A DNA stretch of 62,620 bases, the filler included, from Malassezia furfur (lineage: Eukaryota), in NCBI GenBank assembly GCA_052055015.1. It is 17 parts of 17 records of this genome, joined end to end, with 100 filler letters (N's around TTAATTAATTAA, not from the genome) between each part and the next. Parts side by side here need not be neighbours in the genome. Positions count along the whole stretch, not along the records: positions 51,845 to 55,371 come from JBQJIT010000760.1; 16 more parts are not named here. One strand, 5' to 3'. The translations under genes were made by a program, and so were the position numbers. Below the pieces are notes generated by a model, which was not told the origin of the DNA, did no database searches, and worked only from the letters and a program-made list of their open reading frames with translations. How positions within the stretch are numbered: position 1 is the first letter of the stretch; every line of letters begins with the position of its first letter. Below, in pieces: positions 2,040-55,471 of this stretch.

Positions 2040-2104
2040 CGGCGCGCCGCTGTACCCTACGGGTCTATAGTACATGGTAGGCCCCACGAGCCCGCGCGCA
2101 TGCG

Positions 2105-3193
2105 CTACCACGCCGGCGCCGCGCGCACGCCCTCCCACCGCGGGATGGTGCGCCCGATCGCGCCGTCGGCCGCCTGCTTCGCGTGCCGCGCCTTGTCGGA
2201 GCGCACGCCGAGCGCCGGCGTGCCGCGGTTGAGCGCCTCGAGCAGCACGCACGCCTTGCACAGCTCGTTCGACGACAGGTAGCCGCACCGCATGCACGTG
2301 CGCTGCACCGCGCGCTTCACCTGGCCCGCCACATGCAAATTCTCGCCGGCGTGGATGATGTCGATGATGCTCGACGCCCGGATGCTCTCGAGGTCCTTGA
2401 GGAAGGTGCGTGCGTAGCCGCGGTACGCGTTCGGCGAGTAGATGCACTCGGTGCTGAAGTAGTCGAGCTGCTTGAAGTAGGCATACATCACGATCTCCTT
2501 CTCGTACGCATACTTGAACGGCTTGCTCCGCTTGATGCCACTCCCGCCGAACGACGCACCGCCGCCGCACCCGCCGGCCTCGTCGTCGCCCTCGGGGCCC
2601 TTGGTGAGGATCTCGGTGCAGCGCTCGAGGCGCGCAATGTCGCCGCGCAGCACGTTCATCAGGATCGTCTCGGCAATGTCGTCCGCATTGTGGCCCGTCA
2701 CGATGTGGTCCACGCCGAGCGACGCCGCGCCGCGGTCGAGCGCCTGCCGCCGGAACACGCCGCAGAACGTGCAGTTGTTCTTGCGGCCGACGCTCGCCAC
2801 GATCTCGTCCATGGACCAGCCGTAGAGCTCCTTGTAGCCCAGCACGGTGAGCGGCATCGCATACTGCGCCTGGTTGCGCTTGACCGTCTCGAGGCTGTCG
2901 TCGCGGTACCCCGTGATCCCCTCGTCGATGCTCAGCAGGATGAGGTGCAGCCCGTAGTCGTAGCGCTCGTTGAGCGTCTTCATGACGTGCGCCAGCACCG
3001 TCGAGTCCTTGCCGCCGCTCGCGCCGATCGCGACGCGGTCGCCGCGCTGGAAGAGGCGCGCCTCGGTGATCGTGTGGTGCACCTCGGTCTCGAACACGTA
3101 GAAAAAGCACTCCTTGCACACCATCTGGCCCGTCTTGGGGCGCCTCAGCACGGCGCGCGCCTCGCCGCACAGCACACACGGCCGCGGCGCCAT
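2105..3193 (-). CDS. NCS6: Cytoplasmic tRNA 2-thiolation protein 1 (Ncs6/Ctu1)
   Basis: PP-loop [26 protein letters not shown] and terminal CxxC zinc fingers; ATG at 3193. Confidence 0.95.
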
Positions 3194-3241
3194 CAAAAAA
3201 ACGAAGCAGGCGCGCCGCTGAGTCAGCGTGGGGAAACGACG

Positions 3242-3646
3242 ATGCTCGCGCTCCGCCGCTCCGCGGGCCTCGCGCGCCGCGCCCTGCACACGACCGCGCG
3301 CCTGCACATCGACCGCCACGCACACGAGGAGCACGAGCGGCCGGGGTACGCGATCCCCACGCCGTTCTGGGAGCGCGCACTCCTCGGCGTCGGCAGCGCC
3401 CTCGGCCTGCTCGTCAACCCGAGCCGCGGCGACCTGCTCTCGGTGCTCACGCAGGTGTCCTCCTTCCCGAACATCGACCAGCTCGTCGAGCAGATGCGCG
3501 CCACGCACGAGGGGCGCCGCCTGCTCGTCGCGCGCCCGTCGATCAACTCGCGCACCGTCGACCTCGAGGCGCTCTGGGCGCTGCCCGACCACACGTTCGG
3601 CAAGGAGTGGGTGCGCTGGCTCCGCGCGAACCGCGTCGGGCCCGAC
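3242..3646 (+). CDS. COQ4: Ubiquinone biosynthesis protein Coq4, truncated by contig end
   Basis: Presequence [18 protein letters not shown], then NPSRGDL...[34 protein letters not shown]. Confidence 0.85.
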
Positions 3647-3746
3647 NNNNNNNNNNNNNNNNNNNNNNNNNNNNNNNNNNNNNNNNNNNNTTAATTAATT
3701 AANNNNNNNNNNNNNNNNNNNNNNNNNNNNNNNNNNNNNNNNNNNN
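3647..3746. other. Artificial contig linker N44-TTAATTAATTAA-N44 (first of 16)
   Basis: Identical 100-nt linkers start at 3647, 7386, 11118, 14848, 18576, 22303, 26021, 29721, 33417, 37096, 40765, 44427, 48088, 51745, 55372 and 58998; the core has stops in all six frames. Confidence 0.99.
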
Positions 3747-4870: not shown

Positions 4871-5170
4871 GTCGTCGTCCGTGCCTAAGCGGCACCCGAA
4901 AGCATTTTTCGACTTAATTCCCCGACCCACGCCGGCGCTCGGGGGCAGCGGCGCACGCGCCCGGCGTGGCCCTCCGCCGGTGGGCGCCGCACGCTTGTAT
5001 TGCGACGCGGGCGTCGCTGCGTGCGAAGCGCGCCGCACCCACGCACCTCGCGCCCGCCCACCGGCGTATTGACGCGCCCTGAGGCCCATCGGGCCCATTC
5101 CCACGGCCACACTGCCATGCATAATACAGGATTCACTGGCTGCTCTACCTAGGCGACATCGTCGTGCTCA

Positions 5171-5757
5171 TCACGGCCGGCCACGGCCACGGCCACGCAT
5201 CCCGCGGCCACGCCCACGGTCGCCACGGCCCCGTGCGGCCGGCGCATTGGGGTCGCGCTTCGATTTCGGCCGCGGCGCATCGTCGACCAGCAGCGTATCG
5301 AGCGGCAGCGCATCGGGCAGGATCCAGTACCGCGTGTTGTTGCCTCGGATCGAAAGCGTATCCAGCATGATCGGCTCGCGCCCACGCACCGTGAGCTTGA
5401 CGTTTTTGAGGTGGGTATTCATCTGCACATCGACACCTGTATCAGTAGGGAGCGGGCGCGGCGCGCGGCGCGCCGCGCACACTGCGTGCGTGTGCCACTG
5501 TGTGGCACGACATCGCGCCTGTGCTTGCGTGTCCGGCTGCCGCACGACGTGCGCGGCGATGCTGCGCGGCGCACGTCGCACACGCGCATGCGACGCACGA
5601 CGGCGCACGGCGGCGCACGCGCGCGCCCGCTCCGGCGTACGTACCAGTGACCGTCCCATGCACAATCGTCCCGTTCTTCAGCTCGATCGTGACGCTCTCA
5701 TTGTTGAGCTTCATCAAGAAGCTGCGTTAGCGCCCCCACCTACCGAACCAACTTCAT
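5171..5757 (-). CDS. SMD1: snRNP core protein Sm D1, 3 exons
   Basis: Introns 5722-5743 (22 nt) and 5437-5644 (208 nt) give [40 protein letters not shown]...SIRGNNTRY... with an RG tail. Confidence 0.95.
5449..5633 (-). repeat. Perfect 12-bp inverted repeat closing SmD1 intron 2
   Basis: GGAGCGGGCGCG (5449-5460) is the reverse complement of CGCGCCCGCTCC (5622-5633); pairing extends inward with bulges. Confidence 0.85.
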
Positions 5758-5786
5758 CTTGGTCGCAGGAAGACGTCGACGGCCCG

Positions 5787-5796
5787 GTCACGTGAC
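5787..5796. promoter_or_regulatory. Palindromic GTCACGTGAC E-box (Cbf1-type bHLH site) in the SMD1/EXO1 divergent promoter
   Basis: Lies in an 88-nt gap between divergent ATGs; the same core recurs at 8306, 36202, 42479, 51989 and 53846. Confidence 0.6.
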
Positions 5797-5845
5797 AATA
5801 CAGCCGCGCGGGGCTCGACGCGTCGCGAACGCTACGCGTGCCGCG

Positions 5846-7385
5846 ATGGGCATCGCCGGGCTGCTCCCCCTGCTGAAGGACATCCAGGAGGCGACGCATG
5901 TCGAAAAGTACCGTGGAAAGACGGTCGGGATCGACGCGTACGTGTGGCTGCATCGCGGCGCGTACGCGTGTGCGTCCGACCTGGCACTCGGTCGGCCCAC
6001 GACGCGCTACGTCGCGTACGCGGTGCACCGCATCCGCATGCTGCGGCACTACGGCGTGATCCCGTACGTGGTGTTTGACGGTGGACCCCTGCCGAGCAAG
6101 GCACACACCGAGGCGGAGCGCGCAGCGTACGTCCCTCTTCACTCACCCAGGAAACGCGCCGAGCACCGTGCCAAGGGCCTTGCGCTGCACCAGCAGAACA
6201 AGGGGTCGGCGGCGCGCGACGCGTTCGTGCGGTGCGTCGACGTGACGCCTGCGATGGCGCACGAGCTGATCCGCGTCTTGCGTGCCGAGGGCATCGCGTA
6301 CGTCGTTGCGCCGTACGAGGCCGACGCCCAACTCGCCTACATGGAGCGCCAGGGCCTCATCGACGCAATCATCACCGAGGACTCCGACTTACTGGTGTTT
6401 GGGTGCAAGACCGTGCTGTTCAAGCTCGACACCTACGGCCACTGCGTCGAGGTGCAGCAGGCGCGCTTCGCGTCCACGCAGCAGATCTCGCTCGAGGGCT
6501 GGGGCGCCGACGAATTCCGGCGCATGGCCATCCTGTCGGGCTGCGACTACCTGCCGTCGATCGTCGGCATGGGGCTCAAGAATGCGCACCGCTTCCTGCG
6601 GCGCTATGAGTCCGTCGACAACGTGCTGCGTGCGCTGCGGCTCGAGGGGAAACTGCGCGTCCCGCCGAGCTATGCGGACGACTTCCGCCGCGCCGAGTTC
6701 ACCTTTGTGCACCAGCGCGTGTGGGACCCGCGCGGCTGCGGGTGCATGACGACGCTCACGCCGCTCCCGGACGACGTCGACGACGCACTGCTCACGTTCA
6801 TCGGCGCGCCCATCCCGTGGGAGCTCGCGCGCCAGATCGCCGCCGGCGACGTGTGCCCGATCGACAAGACACCGCTCGGCCGCGCACCGCCGCTGCAGCG
6901 CGCCGCGTCCGCACCGCAGCGCGGCGCACAGGCGTCGCTGCACGCCTTCTTTGCCAAGCCCGCCGACGCGCCGCCCACGCAACACGCGACGCCCGCGCCG
7001 CGCCGCGTCCTGGGCGAACTCGACGTGAACCGTGCGGGCCTCGATCCTGGTGCGCAGCGCACGCGCACGCCGCGCGCCGCCAGCTGGCACACGCCGCCGG
7101 GCCACGCGCCGCCACACACCCCGACGCCCTCCGCGGCGGTGTCGGTTGCGCCGACGTCGACGCCGCAGTCGTCGCGCTTCTTCGCACCGCGCACCGACGC
7201 CGCGCCGGACGCCGCGCCGGACGCCGCCGAGTCCCACAGCAGCGACGTGGGCACCCCCCAGACGTCGCCCCGCACCGATGCCTCGCTTGGTGTGGGCGCC
7301 TCGCCGCACCGCAAGGACGCCTGGAACGACGGCGTATCGAGTCCCGTATCGTCGCCGGGCGCCTCGCCGACGCGCGCCATGCCGG
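5846..7385 (+). CDS. EXO1: Exonuclease 1 (XPG/Rad2 family), truncated
   Basis: MGIAGLLPLLK, GIDAYVWLHRGA, VVFDGG, APYEADAQLAY, ITEDSDLL, LSGCDY; probable in-frame 24-nt intron at 6127-6150. Confidence 0.95.
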
Positions 7386-48242: not shown

Positions 48243-51200
48243 GCCGGCACCGAGCCGCCCTGCAGCGCGGCGGCCAGCGCCGAGCGCCGCAGCGGCGTGT
48301 ACACATTCTTGCGCGCCGCGTCGGTCGTGGCGCGGTCGCGCGCCGCGTCGGCGTGCGCAAGGCACGCCGCGTACATCTTTTGCGCGATGGCGACCTGCTC
48401 CTCGTCGTGCACGTCCACCGACACGTCGAGGCACCGCAGCATCGCATTGGTCGCGAGGCCCGTGTTGAGCGCCAACAGCCCCACGCGCCCGATCGGGTTG
48501 TGCGCGACGTCGAGGTGCAGCAGGTGCTTGGCGTCGGGCAGGCACTCGGCGAGCGCCACGGCGCCCTCGGCGGTGAGCTGCGTGTCCGCGAGAAAGACGC
48601 GGCGCAGCTTGGGGTGCACGCCGAGCGCCTCGCGCAGGCGCAGCACGCCCACGAGGTTCGCGCCGCCACACGGGTTGTGGCTCACGTCGAGCGTCTCGAG
48701 CGTGGTGTTGTAGCGCAGCGCATCGGCGAGCAGCGCCAGCGCGGGCGCGTCCAGGTCGTTGTCGCTCACACTCAGCACGCGCAGCGTCGCGTTGCGGCGC
48801 ACCGCCGCGGCAAACGGCGCCATGTACGTGCGCAGCGAGTTGCTCTTCACGTCGAGCGTCTGCAGCGCACTGCAGTGCGGCAGGCGCGACAGCTTCGCGC
48901 CGTACGCGAGCGCCTCGCGCTGCAGCGCGAGCCGCCGCTCCTCGTGCGCCTGCGTGCGCCGCACGGGCGTGCCGTGCAGCAGCGCGCGCGCCACCGCCGC
49001 GTCCGACGCGCCGTACAGCTCATGCGTCGGCTCGCTCATGCGCTGCCACTGCAGCTCGGCGGCCTCGACGTACGGCTGCGCGCGGTCGTCAATGTCGCGC
49101 AGAAGCAGCGCGAGCGCCCCGACCGCCTGCCCGCCGATGCGGTTGCGCCGCAGCGACACGTGCCGGATGCGCGACGTGCGCACCGCCGCGGCCACCGCCT
49201 CGAGCGACGCGGCACGCAGGCCGCACTGCTCCATGCGCACCGTCTGCAGACTCGCGGGGCGCGCAAAGATCGCACGCACCGCCGACTTCGACAGCACGTT
49301 CTCCGACACGTCCATGTTCTCCACCACCCCGGCGCCAATCAGGCGGCCGAGCGCGTCCCAGCCGCGCGCACGCACCAGCGGGTTGCACGCCACGCTCAGC
49401 ACGCGCACACTCGGCTCGACACGCAGCGCACGCAGCACCGCCTCCGCACCCGCGTCGCTCAGATTGCAGTCCTCGAGCACCAGCCGCGTGAGGCCCATCG
49501 GCGCGCCCAGCATGTCCGCCAGCGGCAGCGCCGCATGCTGCAGATCGATCGTCGTCAGGTCGAGCGCACGCGCGTCCGTCCACGTCGCCGCCTGCTCGAG
49601 CGTCGCAAGCACCGCAGCGTGCGGCACCTCTTCGCGCGCACGGCAGCACATCCTATACAATCCTTGCAGCTCGCTCGGCGTCCACGCCCGCCCACGCAGC
49701 CGCGCCATGCGCTGCGCACACTCTTGCTCGACACGCGCACGCGTCGCCTGCTCGGTATGCGGCGCCTCGGCGTGCGCAATGGGGTACGTGTGCACAAGGT
49801 CCTCGACGCGGAAGTGCACGTGCGACCGCCGCCGCTGCTCGCGCGCACCGTCGGGCGCCGGCGTCCAGCTGCCCGACGTCCGCCGCAGTCGTGGAGCTCA
49901 GCCGACGCAGCACACCGGACAGCATCGACATGGCGCCCCCCGTCGACATGGGCATGCGGATCGGTAGACTCGGTAGGTTTTGCTGTGCCAGCCGGCTGTT
50001 GAGGCTGTACACGAGCTCCTTGCCGAGCCACAGCGCATTGTTGCTCTCGGACGGCGGCTCGCGCAGGATGCCTCGGCTGGGGCGCGGGCGGCTCGACGAG
50101 GGAGGGAAGCGCGGCGGGTCGGCCGCGGCGCTTGGGTCGGCGCTTGGGTCGGCGCTCGGCTGGGCGCTCGGTTTGGCGCTCGGTTCGGCGCTCGGATCGG
50201 CACTCCGTGCGGCGCTCCGTGCGGCGCTTGATTCAGCGCTCGTCGCGGCGCTTGGTTCGGTACTCGGTTGGGTGCTTGGTTCGGCGCTCGGTTTGGCGCT
50301 CGGTGCGGCGCTCGGTTCGACGCTCGGTTTGGCGCTCGGTTTGGCGCTCGATTCTGCGCTCGATTCTGCGCTCGGTTCTGCGCTCGATTCTGCACTCGAT
50401 TCTGCGCTCGGTTTGGCGCTCGATTCTGTGCTCGATTCTGCGCTCCGTGCGGCGCTCGATTCTGCGCTCGGTTTGGCGCTCGGCGCAGCAGCGGGCTCGT
50501 CCGCGCCCGCATCGGAGCGATCCGCGGCCTGCTCCGTGCCAACGGCCGAGGGTCCTGCATCGGCACGATCCGCGGCACGATCCGAGGCGCTCCCCCGATC
50601 GGCCGCGGACCGCGCAGCATCGGATCGTGCCGAGGCGCCCTGTGCGTCGCCCGCGGCCGCGGTCGCGGCACCCGCCCCANNNNNNNNNNGCGCTCGATTC
50701 TGCGCTCGGTTCTGCGCTCGATTCTGCACTCGATTCTGCGCTCGGTTTGGCGCTCGATTCTGTGCTCGATTCTGCGCTCCGTGCGGCGCTCGATTCTGCG
50801 CTCGGTTTGGCGCTCGGCGCAGCAGCGGGCTCGTCCGCGCCCGCATCGGAGCGATCCGCGGCCTGCTCCGTGCCAACGGCCGAGGGTCCTGCATCGGCAC
50901 GATCCGCGGCACGATCCGAGGCGCTCCCCCGATCGGCCGCGGACCGCGCAGCATCGGATCGTGCCGAGGCGCCCTGTGCGTCGCCCGCGGCCGCGGTCGC
51001 GGCACCCGCCCCACCGGCAGGCCCCTCGTTGGCTCGCGCCTCCCCCGCACCGGATTCTTCTTGCTGGCTTGGTAGCCCCTCGTCCCGCGCGTCGTCCTCG
51101 CTGTTGGGATCGCGGGGTGCCTCGGATGTTGATGCTGCGGATGCGGCAGACGCGGGCGAGTCGGACGGCCCCATGGGCGACGCAGGCGCCGCGCCGTCCA

Positions 51201-51744: not shown

Positions 51745-52060
51745 NNNNNNNNNNNNNNNNNNNNNNNNNNNNNNNNNNNNNNNNNNNNTTAATTAATTAA
51801 NNNNNNNNNNNNNNNNNNNNNNNNNNNNNNNNNNNNNNNNNNNNGGACGTGGGCGCCGACGCCGGCGCTGCCGCCGGCTTACGCGCGGCACTCGATGCGG
51901 CCGCCGCGCGCGGCACGTAGCTCGACGCGTGGCGCACCCCCGCACGCAGAAGCACAGACCCCGGCAAACGACCGAGGGCGGACATGGTGTCACGTGCAGA
52001 ACGCCGGCGAACGCGCTGCGCGTTTTTTTCTTCGAATAAAGCGCCCCCACCTCCGCAAGC

Positions 52061-53767
52061 ATGGCACGAGGGGTCCGCGTCGTGGACGCCGCAGACGACG
52101 CGCCGACCAACGAGGGCAAGACGCGCATCGCAGGTGATGAAGAATCGGTCGACTCGCACACGCTTGTCGCGCGCGAGCTCGGCGTCTCGACGCAGTATGA
52201 GCGCCAGGTGCTCCTCGTGAACAAGGCGCTGAACGAGGAGATCGGGTTCGGCGCGTTCCAGATCAAGCTCACGTTCCTCGCGGGCTTCGGCTGGCTCGCC
52301 GACAACATCTGGTTCGAAATCCTCGCCATGACCCTGCCGCAGGCCAAGCTCGAGTTCCAGCCGACGCACGTCGCGTTTGCGACCTTCTCGCTGTACTGCG
52401 GCCTGCTCGTCGGCTCCACGTTCTGGGGCCTGTGCTCGGACATCATCGGACGTCGGCCCTCGTGGAACATCTCGCTGTTCCTCTCGGCGGCGTTCGGCAT
52501 CGCCGTCGGCGGTGCACCCAACTTCCCCGCCATGTGCATTCTGCTCGGCTGCCTCGGCCTAGGCCTCGGCGGTAACCTGCCCGTGGACGGCGCGATGCTG
52601 ATCGAGTACATCCCAGGGCCTTACCAGTGGATCCTGACCTTCCTGTCGCTCTTTTGGTGCCTCGGCCAGCTCTTCGCCGCGGTAATCGGCTGGGCATTTA
52701 TCACCAACTTCCACTGCACCACCGCCGACGACTGCACGTGGAAGGGCAACGCAGGCTGGCGCTACTCGTGGTTCCTGCTGGGCGGCGTGGTGCTGCTCAT
52801 GTGGGTGATCCGGTTCTTTGTGTACCCGATCCCCGAGTCGCCCAAGTACCTCCTCGCGACGAACCGCGTCGAAGAGGCGTTCGAGGTGATCGAGTTCATT
52901 GCGCGCGAAAACAAGCGCACCACCACGCTCACTCTCGAGAAGCTGCGCTTCGCGGGGCTCGGACACACCGTCGACGTCGACCGCGACCGCACGGCGTTCG
53001 AGGCGGCGTGCGCCGAAAAGGAGGAAAAGGCCGCCGCGTCCACGCTGCAGGTGCGCCCGCCCAAGCCCAAGCGTGGCCTGCTGTACGAGACGATGGCGTG
53101 GAGCGACGCGCTGCGCCCGAGCCGCATTGTGCAGACCTACCGCGCGATGCACCGCTCGCCGATCTCGGCGCTGTTCGCCTCGCCGAAGATGACGCTCAAC
53201 ACGCTGCTGATCTGTGCGTGCTGGGGTGCGATCGGCCTGTCCTACCCCCTGTACAACTCGTTCATTGCCATCTACTTGCAGCACGCGGGCGTCAGCGACG
53301 GCGCCAACACGCTCTCCGACGAGTACCGTCAGCTGGTCGAGATCGCCGTGTGTGGCATCCCCGGCAGTCTGATGGCCGCGGCGATGGTCGAGCTGCCGTA
53401 CGCCGGGCGCCGGTGGAGCATGGCCTTCTTCACGGCGCTCACCGGCGTGTTTTTGTTCCTGTTCACCACGGCCAAGACGTCGAGTGCCGTGCTGGGGTGG
53501 AACTGTGCCGCGAGCCTGACGCAAAATGCCATGTACGCCATCCTCTATGCCATCACCTACGAAGTGTTCCCCGCACCGCAGCGCGGCACGGGCGACGGAC
53601 TGTCGATGAGCACACAGCGTGTGTTTGGCGTCGTGGCCACCATCATTGCCGTGTACAAAAGCGAGGAGTTCACGGCGCCGATCTACATCTCGGCGTCCTT
53701 CTTCCTCCTCTCCGCCGTCCTGATGGTCTTCCTTCCCTATGAGCCCCGTGGCCACGACGCATTCTGA
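52061..53767 (+). CDS. MFS transporter (SV2/sugar-porter-like)
   Basis: About 12 hydrophobic segments; SDIIGRR, GGNLPVD, PESPKYL, YEVFPAPQRGTG. Confidence 0.93.
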   Translation: MARGVRVVDAADDAPTNEGKTRIAGDEESVDSHTLVARELGVSTQYERQVLLVNKALNEEIGFGAFQIKLTFLAGFGWLADNIWFEILAMTLPQAKLEFQPTHVAFATFSLYCGLLVGSTFWGLCSDIIGRRPSWNISLFLSAAFGIAVGGAPNFPAMCILLGCLGLGLGGNLPVDGAMLIEYIPGPYQWILTFLSLFWCLGQLFAAVIGWAFITNFHCTTADDCTWKGNAGWRYSWFLLGGVVLLMWVIRFFVYPIPESPKYLLATNRVEEAFEVIEFIARENKRTTTLTLEKLRFAGLGHTVDVDRDRTAFEAACAEKEEKAAASTLQVRPPKPKRGLLYETMAWSDALRPSRIVQTYRAMHRSPISALFASPKMTLNTLLICACWGAIGLSYPLYNSFIAIYLQHAGVSDGANTLSDEYRQLVEIAVCGIPGSLMAAAMVELPYAGRRWSMAFFTALTGVFLFLFTTAKTSSAVLGWNCAASLTQNAMYAILYAITYEVFPAPQRGTGDGLSMSTQRVFGVVATIIAVYKSEEFTAPIYISASFFLLSAVLMVFLPYEPRGHDAF

Positions 53768-53895: not shown

Positions 53896-55371
53896 ATGAT
53901 GCTGCTCGGTGCTCGGCAGATGGCCCGCCCGCGTGCGGGCCTCGCACACCTCTTTTCCACGTCGGCGCTCGCCACGGACGCTGCCCACAAGGTGGTGGTC
54001 GTCGGTGGCGGCACGGCCGGCCTCACCGTCTCGTCGGAGCTGCTGCGCTCGGGCAAATTCGCCGCGAACGACATCGCGGTCGTCGACCCGAGCCAGTGGC
54101 ACGACTACCAGCCCGGCTGGACGCTCGTTGGTGGCGGCCTGACCGACCGCGAGCGCCTGCGCCGCTCTGAGGCGTCCCTGATTGACCCCAAGATCAAATT
54201 TTACCAGGAGCGCGTCACGTCCTTTGCGCCGGAGCAGAACCAGATCGCGACCGCCTCGGGCGAGAAGCTGACCTACGACCAGCTCATCGTCGCGCCCGGC
54301 TTTGAGATCCGCCTCGATGCGATCAAGGGCCTCCAGGAGGCGCTCGCCAACCCCGCGTCCAAGGTGGCTTCGATTTACACCTACGACACCGTCGACAAGG
54401 TCTACGGCAAGATCAAGGCGCTGCGCGAGGGCCGCGCCATCTTTACGCAGCCCGCCACGCCGATCAAGTGCGCGGGCGCGCCGCAAAAGATCATGTGGCT
54501 CGCGCTCGACACCTGGAAGCGCGCGGGGCTCTTTAAGGCGCACGACCCCAGCTCCCCGATCCAGATCGACTTTGCGACGGGCATGCCGACCATGTTCAGC
54601 GTGCCCAAGTACAGCGAGGTGCTCAACCAGCTGCGCGAGGAGCGCGGCGTCGGCGGCTACTTCAAGCACGACCTCGCCGCGATCGAGGACAACGGCACCA
54701 CCGCCGTGTTCAACGTGCCGGACCAGGCGCCGGTGCGCCTCCCCTTCGACTTCTTGCACGTGACGCCCAAGATGAGCCCGCCCAAGTTCGTCCAGGAGTC
54801 GGCGCTGGCCAACGCCGCGGGCTTTGTGGACGTCGACCAGGGCACGCTGCAGCAGGTCAAGTACAAGAACGTGTGGTCGATCGGCGACGCGAGCTCGCTG
54901 CCGACCAGCAAGACCGCCGCGGCCATCACCGGCCAGGCGCCGGTGCTGGTGCACAACCTGCTCCAGGCCATCGACGGCAAGGCGCCCGACGCGCAGTACG
55001 ACGGGTACACCTCGTGCCCGCTGCTCACCGAGTACGGCAAGGTGCTCCTCGCCGAGTTCCAGTACGGCGCCAAGCCCAAGGAGACCTTCTCCAAGTTTGG
55101 CCTTGACCAGGCCAAGCCGCAGCGCGCCTTCTACTACCTCAAGAAGGACTTCTTCCCGTGGGTGTACTACAACTCGATGGTCAAGGGCACCTGGCAGGGG
55201 CCCAAGGGCTTCAAGTTCGGCACGCGCTCCTTGACGACGCAGGCGCCGGCACACGGCCGCCGCACGCTGCACACGAGCGCCCGCACGCTCCGCAACGCGC
55301 CCGCGCGCCGTCCGCGCGACCCGCTGGATGCCGCCGAAGTCGCGCGCTTCCCGCTGCGCACGGGCGAGACG
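53896..55371 (+). CDS. SQR: Mitochondrial sulfide:quinone oxidoreductase with an open C-terminal extension (possible fusion), truncated
   Basis: VVGGGTAG, YQPGWTLVGGG, IKCAGAPQK, PTSKTAAA, YDGYTSCPL; after the usual end (WQGP) the frame stays open to the contig end. Confidence 0.93.
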
Positions 55372-55471
55372 NNNNNNNNNNNNNNNNNNNNNNNNNNNNN
55401 NNNNNNNNNNNNNNNTTAATTAATTAANNNNNNNNNNNNNNNNNNNNNNNNNNNNNNNNNNNNNNNNNNNN

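Follow-up and report, generated by a model that had tools for sequence, protein, structure and literature searches.

A 62,620-nucleotide stretch of Malassezia furfur DNA (assembly GCA_052055015.1; positions 1-62620, hereafter the window) was found to carry a gene for sulfide:quinone oxidoreductase (SQR) whose reading frame continues into the start of the mitochondrial ribosomal protein mL58 (MRP-L20). Seventeen pieces, mostly of about 3.6 kb, make up the window and are joined by N44-TTAATTAATTAA-N44, and the gene is located on the contig at 51845-55371 (JBQJIT010000760.1). The open reading frame (ORF) starts with the ATG at 53896 on the + strand, encodes a complete SQR and stays open to the last base at 55371, and the lack of a stop after the normal SQR end, which an earlier note on this DNA had reported for 53896-55371, was confirmed. 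Immediately downstream is an artificial contig joint lying outside the genome (N44 + TTAATTAATTAA + N44, 55372..55471, no strand). Position 55371 is a true contig end because the window consists of pieces joined by artificial linkers, and the gene is truncated in the window because its contig ends there. Window features that reach a joint are therefore truncated genes and not gene ends.

The SQR half opens with a putative N-terminal mitochondrial presequence, MMLLGARQMARPRAGLAHLFSTSALATDAA (53896..53985, +), which ends just before the flavin adenine dinucleotide-binding segment HKVVVVGGGTAG. The SQR N-terminus was variable and basic with an [RH]-x-F/L-[SA]-T motif conserved in all fungal SQRs aligned, and it probably serves as a targeting signal. 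The mature enzyme, a type II, eukaryotic SQOR-like SQR, occupies residues 31-441 (53986..55218, +) and was assigned from a PF07992 (Pyr_redox_2) match at residues 32-148 of the ORF (E 1e-12) and from 62-68% identity to ascomycete SQRs of about 447 amino acids over 83-89% of the query (E about 1e-180). The GxGxxG glycines of HKVVVVGGGTAG (G37, G39 and G42) were invariant in alignment A1, as were C192 (IKCAGAPQK) and C374 (YTSCPLL) in 14 of 14 sequences, and these two cysteines are presumably the active-site (trisulfide) pair known from human SQOR. The ascomycete SQRs P0045 and P0060 terminate where residue 441 falls in the alignment, corresponding to nt 55218, in agreement with the junction proposed earlier at 55219. 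This sulfide-detoxifying enzyme is monotopic, being bound to the inner membrane through its C-terminal helices.

Past the junction the frame reads GTRSLTTQAPAHGRRTLHTSARTLRNAPARRPRDPLDAAEVARFPLRTGET, a tail of 51 codons (55219-55371) devoid of Met that extends to the N run. Among its first 33 residues are eight Arg or Lys and no Asp or Glu, matching the basic, acid-free tail start that had been described. Residues 442-465 (GTRSLTTQAPAHGRRTLHTSARTL, 55219..55290, +) form a junction linker that was annotated as a candidate internal presequence on the basis of its lack of acidic residues, its motifs and the alignment. It includes two motifs of the type that the mitochondrial processing peptidase (MPP) recognizes, R444-S-L-T-T (55225-55239, +) and R456-T-L-H-T (55261-55275, +). 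Residues 466-492 (RNAPARRPRDPLDAAEVARFPLRTGET, 55291..55371, +) are the start of the mL58 half, identified by a match to the mL58 profile A3, by comparison with P0001, which was the best database relative, and by the GC content at third codon positions (GC3). About 125 codons of the mL58 half lie beyond the contig end, judged from P0001.

The open frame alone was rejected as evidence of fusion, because openness over 51 codons at 66.5% GC is at chance level (P = 0.32), and five of the six tail frames were stop-free. The GC1/GC2/GC3 values were 0.75/0.71/0.92 for the tail in the SQR frame and 0.61/0.44/0.94 for the SQR part, the third-position peak being common to both, and within the tail a GC3 of 0.92 was reached in this frame only. 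Profile A3 searched against the six-frame translation of the whole window had this ORF as its sole match (E 4.3e-7), and P0001 (617 amino acids) was 94% identical over 98% of the query. Frame-specific GC3, the sole profile match and the identity to P0001 therefore place the tail above chance. The 51 residues alone gave no PF12824 (MRP-L20) match at E <= 0.1, because the domain is cut by the contig end.

Full-length fused relatives contained both halves. Past the point at which the contig ends, P0001 continues "...RTGET-FVARTPPTAP..." to a C-terminus of "...RRERRALW", and it matched PF12824 over residues 505-617 (E 1.3e-29, 104 bits against a cut-off of 30.4) as well as PF07992. Both domains were also present in P0003 from Malassezia yamatoensis (PF12824 E 1.4e-26) and in P0024 from Ustilago trichophora (PF12824 E 3.2e-28), which supports the resemblance to mL58/Mrpl20 that the earlier note had suggested and the C-terminal MRP-L20 domain that it had proposed to look for. 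The FIxRPPP-like continuation that it had predicted was found as FVARTPPT in P0001 and as FIVRPPPS at the same place in Ustilago-type fused proteins.

PF12824 and PF07992 occurred together in 54 of the best 120 matches to the whole ORF, in proteins of 602-683 amino acids, while the ascomycete SQRs among these matches had PF07992 only. Those of the fused proteins among these 120 that were named carried the Malassezia names yamatoensis, pachydermatis, vespertilionis, equina, cuniculi and sp. CBS 17886 and the smut genus names Ustilago, Sporisorium, Moesziomyces, Pseudozyma, Testicularia, Melanopsichium and Thecaphora. A 593-residue protein of Ustilago hordei (P0032) had a proline-rich tail in place of the sequence after FIVRPPP and no PF12824 match; other U. 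hordei records, P0033, P0035 and P0040 (661 amino acids), were intact, and the domain loss in P0032 looks like a frameshift in the assembly or gene model.

A profile built from the C-terminal part of the short relatives P0121-P0123 and not from the window itself (A2) matched mL58 chains in the PDB, including those of yeast (5mrc_a, E 1.4e-15; 3j6b_a, E 1.5e-15) and Neurospora (6ywe_a, E 4.8e-12). Yeast mL58 spans 177 amino acids in the 5mrc chain relative to 195 in the 3j6b sequence, a gap consistent with removal of an N-terminal leader. An AlphaFold2 model of P0001 based on an alignment of 32 sequences had a mean predicted local distance difference test score (pLDDT) of 72.7, with 80-95 for the SQR core and 75-89 for residues 540-617, which form a helical C-terminal module. 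The intervening residues 408-469, of which 427-469 are equivalent to the linker, scored below 50.

Metagenome contigs were scanned with an mL58 alignment and five loci (L001-L005) were recovered. SQR, linker and mL58 were encoded in one uninterrupted frame in L001-L004, which ended ...RRALW followed by TAG, and L005 was a contig-end fragment of the same SQR-mL58 gene. The open frames of L001-L004 are not a composition effect, because they run for 630-670 codons at approximately 50% GC. An early stop beyond the contig end, which would have undone the earlier claim, was found neither in the relatives nor in these four loci. The L001, L003 and window loci are orthologous, since the same transporter gene of the major facilitator superfamily (MFS) type is located upstream of each. 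Between L001 and L003, dN/dS (the ratio of non-synonymous to synonymous divergence) was 0.071 for SQR, with 41 synonymous and 11 non-synonymous differences, and 0.119 for linker and mL58 combined, with 24 synonymous and 10 non-synonymous differences. The latter value indicates that the second half is translated in the SQR frame and is under purifying selection. We regard it as virtually certain that this is a real, conserved SQR-mL58 fusion in a single ORF.

The junction was compared across 47 fused proteins, in which 44 linkers were parsed by means of anchors and the motif was visible by eye in the other three. The parsed linkers ranged from 20 to 59 residues in length, of which 4-9 were basic and at most one was acidic, and at least one R-x-[FYLM]-[SATH]-[TSVN] motif was present in all of them (44/44) and two in 33 of the 44. 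Where two motifs occurred they were spaced 11-30 residues apart. A single motif was seen in the short-linker Malassezia proteins P0005, P0006, P0008 and P0013-P0019 and in loci L001-L004, and in the window species a 12-residue insert in the linker holds the second copy. This pattern of insert, one-motif and two-motif linkers indicates that the motif was seemingly duplicated or lost repeatedly. The Arg of the second motif was invariant in alignment A4 (32 of 32 fused proteins) within R-x-F-[S/A]-T-S, the F, T and S after it were each conserved in at least 90%, and the block RN.P.RRPRDPL followed. A crude, home-made presequence-likeness score over 20-residue windows placed the best internal window so that it overlapped the linker in 30 of 32 proteins.

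Stand-alone mL58 proteins have a Met-initiated leader, 15-60 residues long, that ends in R-x-[FY]-[SA]-[TV] in the same columns as the internal motif. This was seen in Exobasidium rhododendri P0277, in Agaricomycete proteins and in other stand-alone proteins, and the alignment of fused and stand-alone mL58 spans RN.P.RRPRDPL to the C-terminal ...RR.LW. As the stand-alone leader ends align at this position, the linker appears to preserve, within the fusion, the end of the former mL58 presequence. The R-2/R-3-type motif that the earlier note had seen at the junction is conserved and homologous to that presequence end. The linker motif R-x-F-[S/A]-T-S also agrees with the MPP consensus (R[AFR][FLY], the cut, then [AKLS][HSTQ]) given by Woellhaf et al. 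(PMC5063612).

The distribution of mL58 was examined by an exhaustive HMMER search, which returned 437 matches at E <= 1e-3, of which the best 150 were inspected. Stand-alone mL58 proteins were 166-240 amino acids long. The long proteins among the best 150 of the 437 were P0135 (660 amino acids) and P0139 (730 amino acids), which were fused, and the fused fragment P0125, while P0131 and P0132 were shorter fragments that still included the SQR end. A profile word search gave 243 matches with the best 120 listed, and the named stand-alone mL58s among these 120 were from Agaricomycetes together with one from Exobasidium rhododendri (P0277, 195 amino acids), none being named from Malassezia or the smuts. 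A word-based search with the 184-residue C-terminal part of P0001 recovered only three proteins, P0121-P0123, and a protein atlas search with P0139 recovered generic SQR clusters only. P0121 was a piece, starting at an internal Met, of the fused ORF of L002. P0123 (168 amino acids), a JGI record named sulfide:quinone oxidoreductase, contained mL58 only, started MRLFSTT... and was placed inside the Ustilago-type fused clade with an SH-like approximate likelihood ratio test (SH-aLRT) support of 98. Either a secondary fission took place, in which the internal signal came to serve as a very short leader, or the gene call is truncated, and the name of the record points to an annotation carried over from fused proteins.

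The mL58 part was used to build a tree by a quick method from 41 rows and 157 columns; it had many open forks, and the "alone" labels of its short ORFs are provisional. The Agaricomycete group comprised 12 stand-alone and no fused proteins, and the Exobasidium-type group eight stand-alone proteins and one fused (P0135). The group of Malassezia and Ustilaginomycetes comprised 16 fused proteins and four short stand-alone ones (P0122, P0123, P0134 and P0136) that fall within the fused clade or next to it. The tree did not support one simple fusion, since it needs three to four state changes, and these suggest more than one fusion or fission or that some of the short records are fragments. As read from these sequences, the fusion most likely arose when SQR was joined to an mL58 gene that had retained its own presequence, and it has since been kept in Malasseziomycetes and Ustilaginomycetes.

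Because the junction resembles a retained import and cleavage signal, the protein is probably cut in two after import. Sequence features and the analogy with known precursors make it a reasonably confident proposal that SQR-mL58 is a tandem mitochondrial precursor cleaved by MPP at the linker, with import as one chain, the MPP cleavage and the exact cut sites all predicted. The precursor would consist, in order, of an N-terminal presequence, SQR, the retained internal presequence and mL58. The whole chain would be drawn through TOM/TIM23 into the matrix by the N-terminal signal, which MPP would then remove. MPP would also cut after R-x-(F/L) and before (S/A/H)-T-S, just ahead of RN[TA]PxRRPRDPL, and in two-motif species an additional MPP cut nearer the SQR end would excise a short spacer. 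Trimming of one further residue by Icp55 is possible. The products would be a membrane-bound SQR of normal length and mL58 as a separate protein, about 150-160 residues long, that would enter the mitoribosome.

Known mitochondrial tandem precursors are few, comprising Arg5,6, Atp25, Etp1, Rsm22-Cox11, SPAC22A12.08c and rice RPS14, and SQR-mL58 is absent from the composite-precursor list in the available part of the paper that gives them (PMC8734313). A presequence-like segment with an MPP motif is located at the junction of Atp25, Etp1, Rsm22-Cox11, SPAC22A12.08c and rice RPS14, and internal MPP cleavage of Arg5,6 was shown by Friedl et al. (PMC8734313). Atp25 is cut three times by MPP and its internal signal is spliced out (Woellhaf et al., PMC5063612). 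SQR-mL58 resembles Atp25 of Saccharomyces cerevisiae (Rsf and M domain) in placing two unrelated matrix proteins, one of them related to the mitoribosome large subunit, in one ORF with a complete internal presequence, and the two MPP sites around the excised Atp25 spacer are similar to the two-motif linkers described here. The ribosome-related half is N-terminal in Atp25, whereas it is C-terminal here; the partners here are SQR and a structural ribosomal protein, and cleavage has been demonstrated for Atp25 while that of SQR-mL58 is predicted.

The rice SDHB/RPS14 chimeric precursor arises by alternative splicing within the SDHB gene, whereas the SQR-mL58 frame is continuous in genomic DNA. 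Both the rice protein and Rsm22-Cox11 of Schizosaccharomyces pombe are similar to SQR-mL58 in combining a mitoribosome-related with a respiratory-chain-related protein and in the MPP motif at the junction, and RPS14 relies on the N-terminal targeting signal of another protein (PMC8734313), although the proteins and the lineages differ from those here. The likeness to yeast Arg5,6 and Neurospora arg-6 includes an N-terminal mitochondrial targeting signal, an internal R-2 type site, predicted Icp55 trimming and a tandem organisation conserved over a large fungal clade (PMC8734313). The Arg5,6 halves catalyze consecutive pathway steps and form a complex, however, while no functional link between SQR and mL58 is known. 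Stand-alone fungal mL58/Mrpl20 (PF12824; 3j6b_a, 5mrc_a, 6ywe_a) is orthologous to the C-terminal half, and differs in that the leader has become internal in SQR-mL58, behind a 441-residue enzyme.

Several points weigh against a tandem precursor cleaved at its linker. The linker alone differed between L001 and L003 by one synonymous and two non-synonymous changes, which are too few to judge selection on it, and the figure of 30 of 32 for presequence-likeness comes from a home-made score. The second motif of the window, R-T-L-H-T, is a weaker fit to the MPP consensus of PMC5063612, with L in place of F and an H at +1 that falls outside [AKLS]. The mL58 tree needs four changes between fused and stand-alone states, of which well-supported branches force three, and a separate mL58 copy may be present in some species of the fused clade.

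Cleavage at the linker is itself predicted from sequence, which leaves room for a fusion that stays wholly or partly uncleaved, with mL58 sitting in the large subunit while SQR is still attached and the linker tying the enzyme to the membrane-facing side. The monotopic binding of SQR to the inner membrane by its C-terminal end, which immediately precedes the flexible linker, fits such an arrangement, as does a linker of 20-59 residues that is predicted to be unstructured, and mL58 is located in a membrane-facing protuberance with mL44, mL50 and mL57 (PMC7947838, PMC11345376). A tether would need neither the invariant Arg nor an R-x-F-[SA]-T-S motif homologous to the point at which the cleaved presequence of stand-alone mL58 ends, however; the two motifs in most linkers are reminiscent of the excised Atp25 spacer, and every experimentally studied tandem precursor listed in the available part of PMC8734313 is cleaved. 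We consider an uncleaved product unlikely. It is a still more doubtful idea that an uncleaved fraction acts as a covalent tether between ribosome and membrane, by which translating mitoribosomes would be held beside a quinone-reducing sulfide sensor and the MPP site would set the ratio of tethered to free forms. If so, sulfide load would be coupled to the biogenesis of the respiratory chain.

The two halves could also be made separately from the one locus through an internal transcription start, alternative splicing or internal initiation, in which case the linker would be the mL58 presequence. In keeping with this, the linker looks like the leader at the N-terminus of stand-alone mL58, and short proteins such as P0123 occur within the Ustilago-type clade, but Met is missing from the 51-residue tail and is conserved in no column of the linkers, and the short "stand-alone" record P0121 is only an internal-Met fragment of the fused ORF of L002. 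Alternative splicing had been raised on account of a branch/acceptor-like TTGACGACGCAG, which is indeed placed at 55231-55242, but splicing there was unsupported as P0001-P0004, P0007 and P0009 keep the stretch as in-frame protein. An intron with its 3' end at the CAG at 55242 was rejected, since the sole nearby GT donor, at 55160, would give an 83-nt intron and a frameshift, and removal of 55160-55242 would take out SQR residues that vary little or not at all in A1. Separate expression is improbable on these grounds. An artefact, in which adjacent genes were merged by a sequencing error or a missed stop or intron and then spread by gene predictors, would accord with the chance-level openness of the 51-codon tail at the window GC and with the diverging C-terminus of P0032 from one U. 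hordei strain, but it is very improbable and largely refuted by the same frame in the window, in four independent metagenome contigs of about 50% GC and in 47 protein records drawn from a number of sources and pipelines, by purifying selection in the SQR frame and by the GC3 of 0.92 in this frame only.

An MFS-type transporter ORF at 52040-53767 (+) is located directly upstream of the SQR-mL58 ORF in the window, and an MFS-type transporter was also upstream in L001 and L003 (both 715-2481). This gene order was kept despite a GC content of 66% in the window relative to 50% in the metagenome relatives. On the 3' side of SQR-mL58, L001 and L003 featured a 324-residue ORF (5159-6133 and 5161-6135, respectively, both on the - strand) with a Cys-rich N-terminal segment, KLACATCIQGHRASSCKH...RGRP, which seems to resemble that of copper-fist transcription factors. 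Elsewhere in the window, a Coq4-like ORF at 2081-3691 (+) had an N-terminal presequence end of the R-x-L-H-T-T type, as in the SQR linker, and the RRALHTT to which the earlier note had likened the junction is present in it. An extra N10 gap occurs at 50680-50689.

A full-text literature search, which did not extend to subscription journals or supplements, found no paper describing the SQR-mL58 pairing, and it was unmentioned in the available parts of papers on tandem precursors (PMC8734313, PMC5063612), on H2S in Ustilago maydis and on mitoribosomes. The architecture is not hidden, because two-domain gene models are already public. Fused proteins are named in databases as either "sulfide:quinone oxidoreductase" or "54S ribosomal protein L20", and because they are named under one half or the other, mL58 seems absent from Malassezia and smut proteomes and SQR seems about 170-200 residues too long.

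If the proposed cleavage is true, SQR-mL58 would be a well-conserved natural case in which an unrelated respiratory-chain enzyme precedes a structural mitoribosomal protein. It has been remarked that the majority of tandem precursors bring in mitoribosome proteins, perhaps sparing cytosolic ribosomes from disturbance (PMC5063612), and the fusion would strengthen this remark. Ustilago maydis offers a genetically tractable host for testing it. Natural controls exist in the stand-alone mL58s of Exobasidium and mushrooms, in which the same motif ends an ordinary N-terminal presequence, and because these stand-alone forms carry it the case would capture a presequence turning internal, and possibly the reverse.

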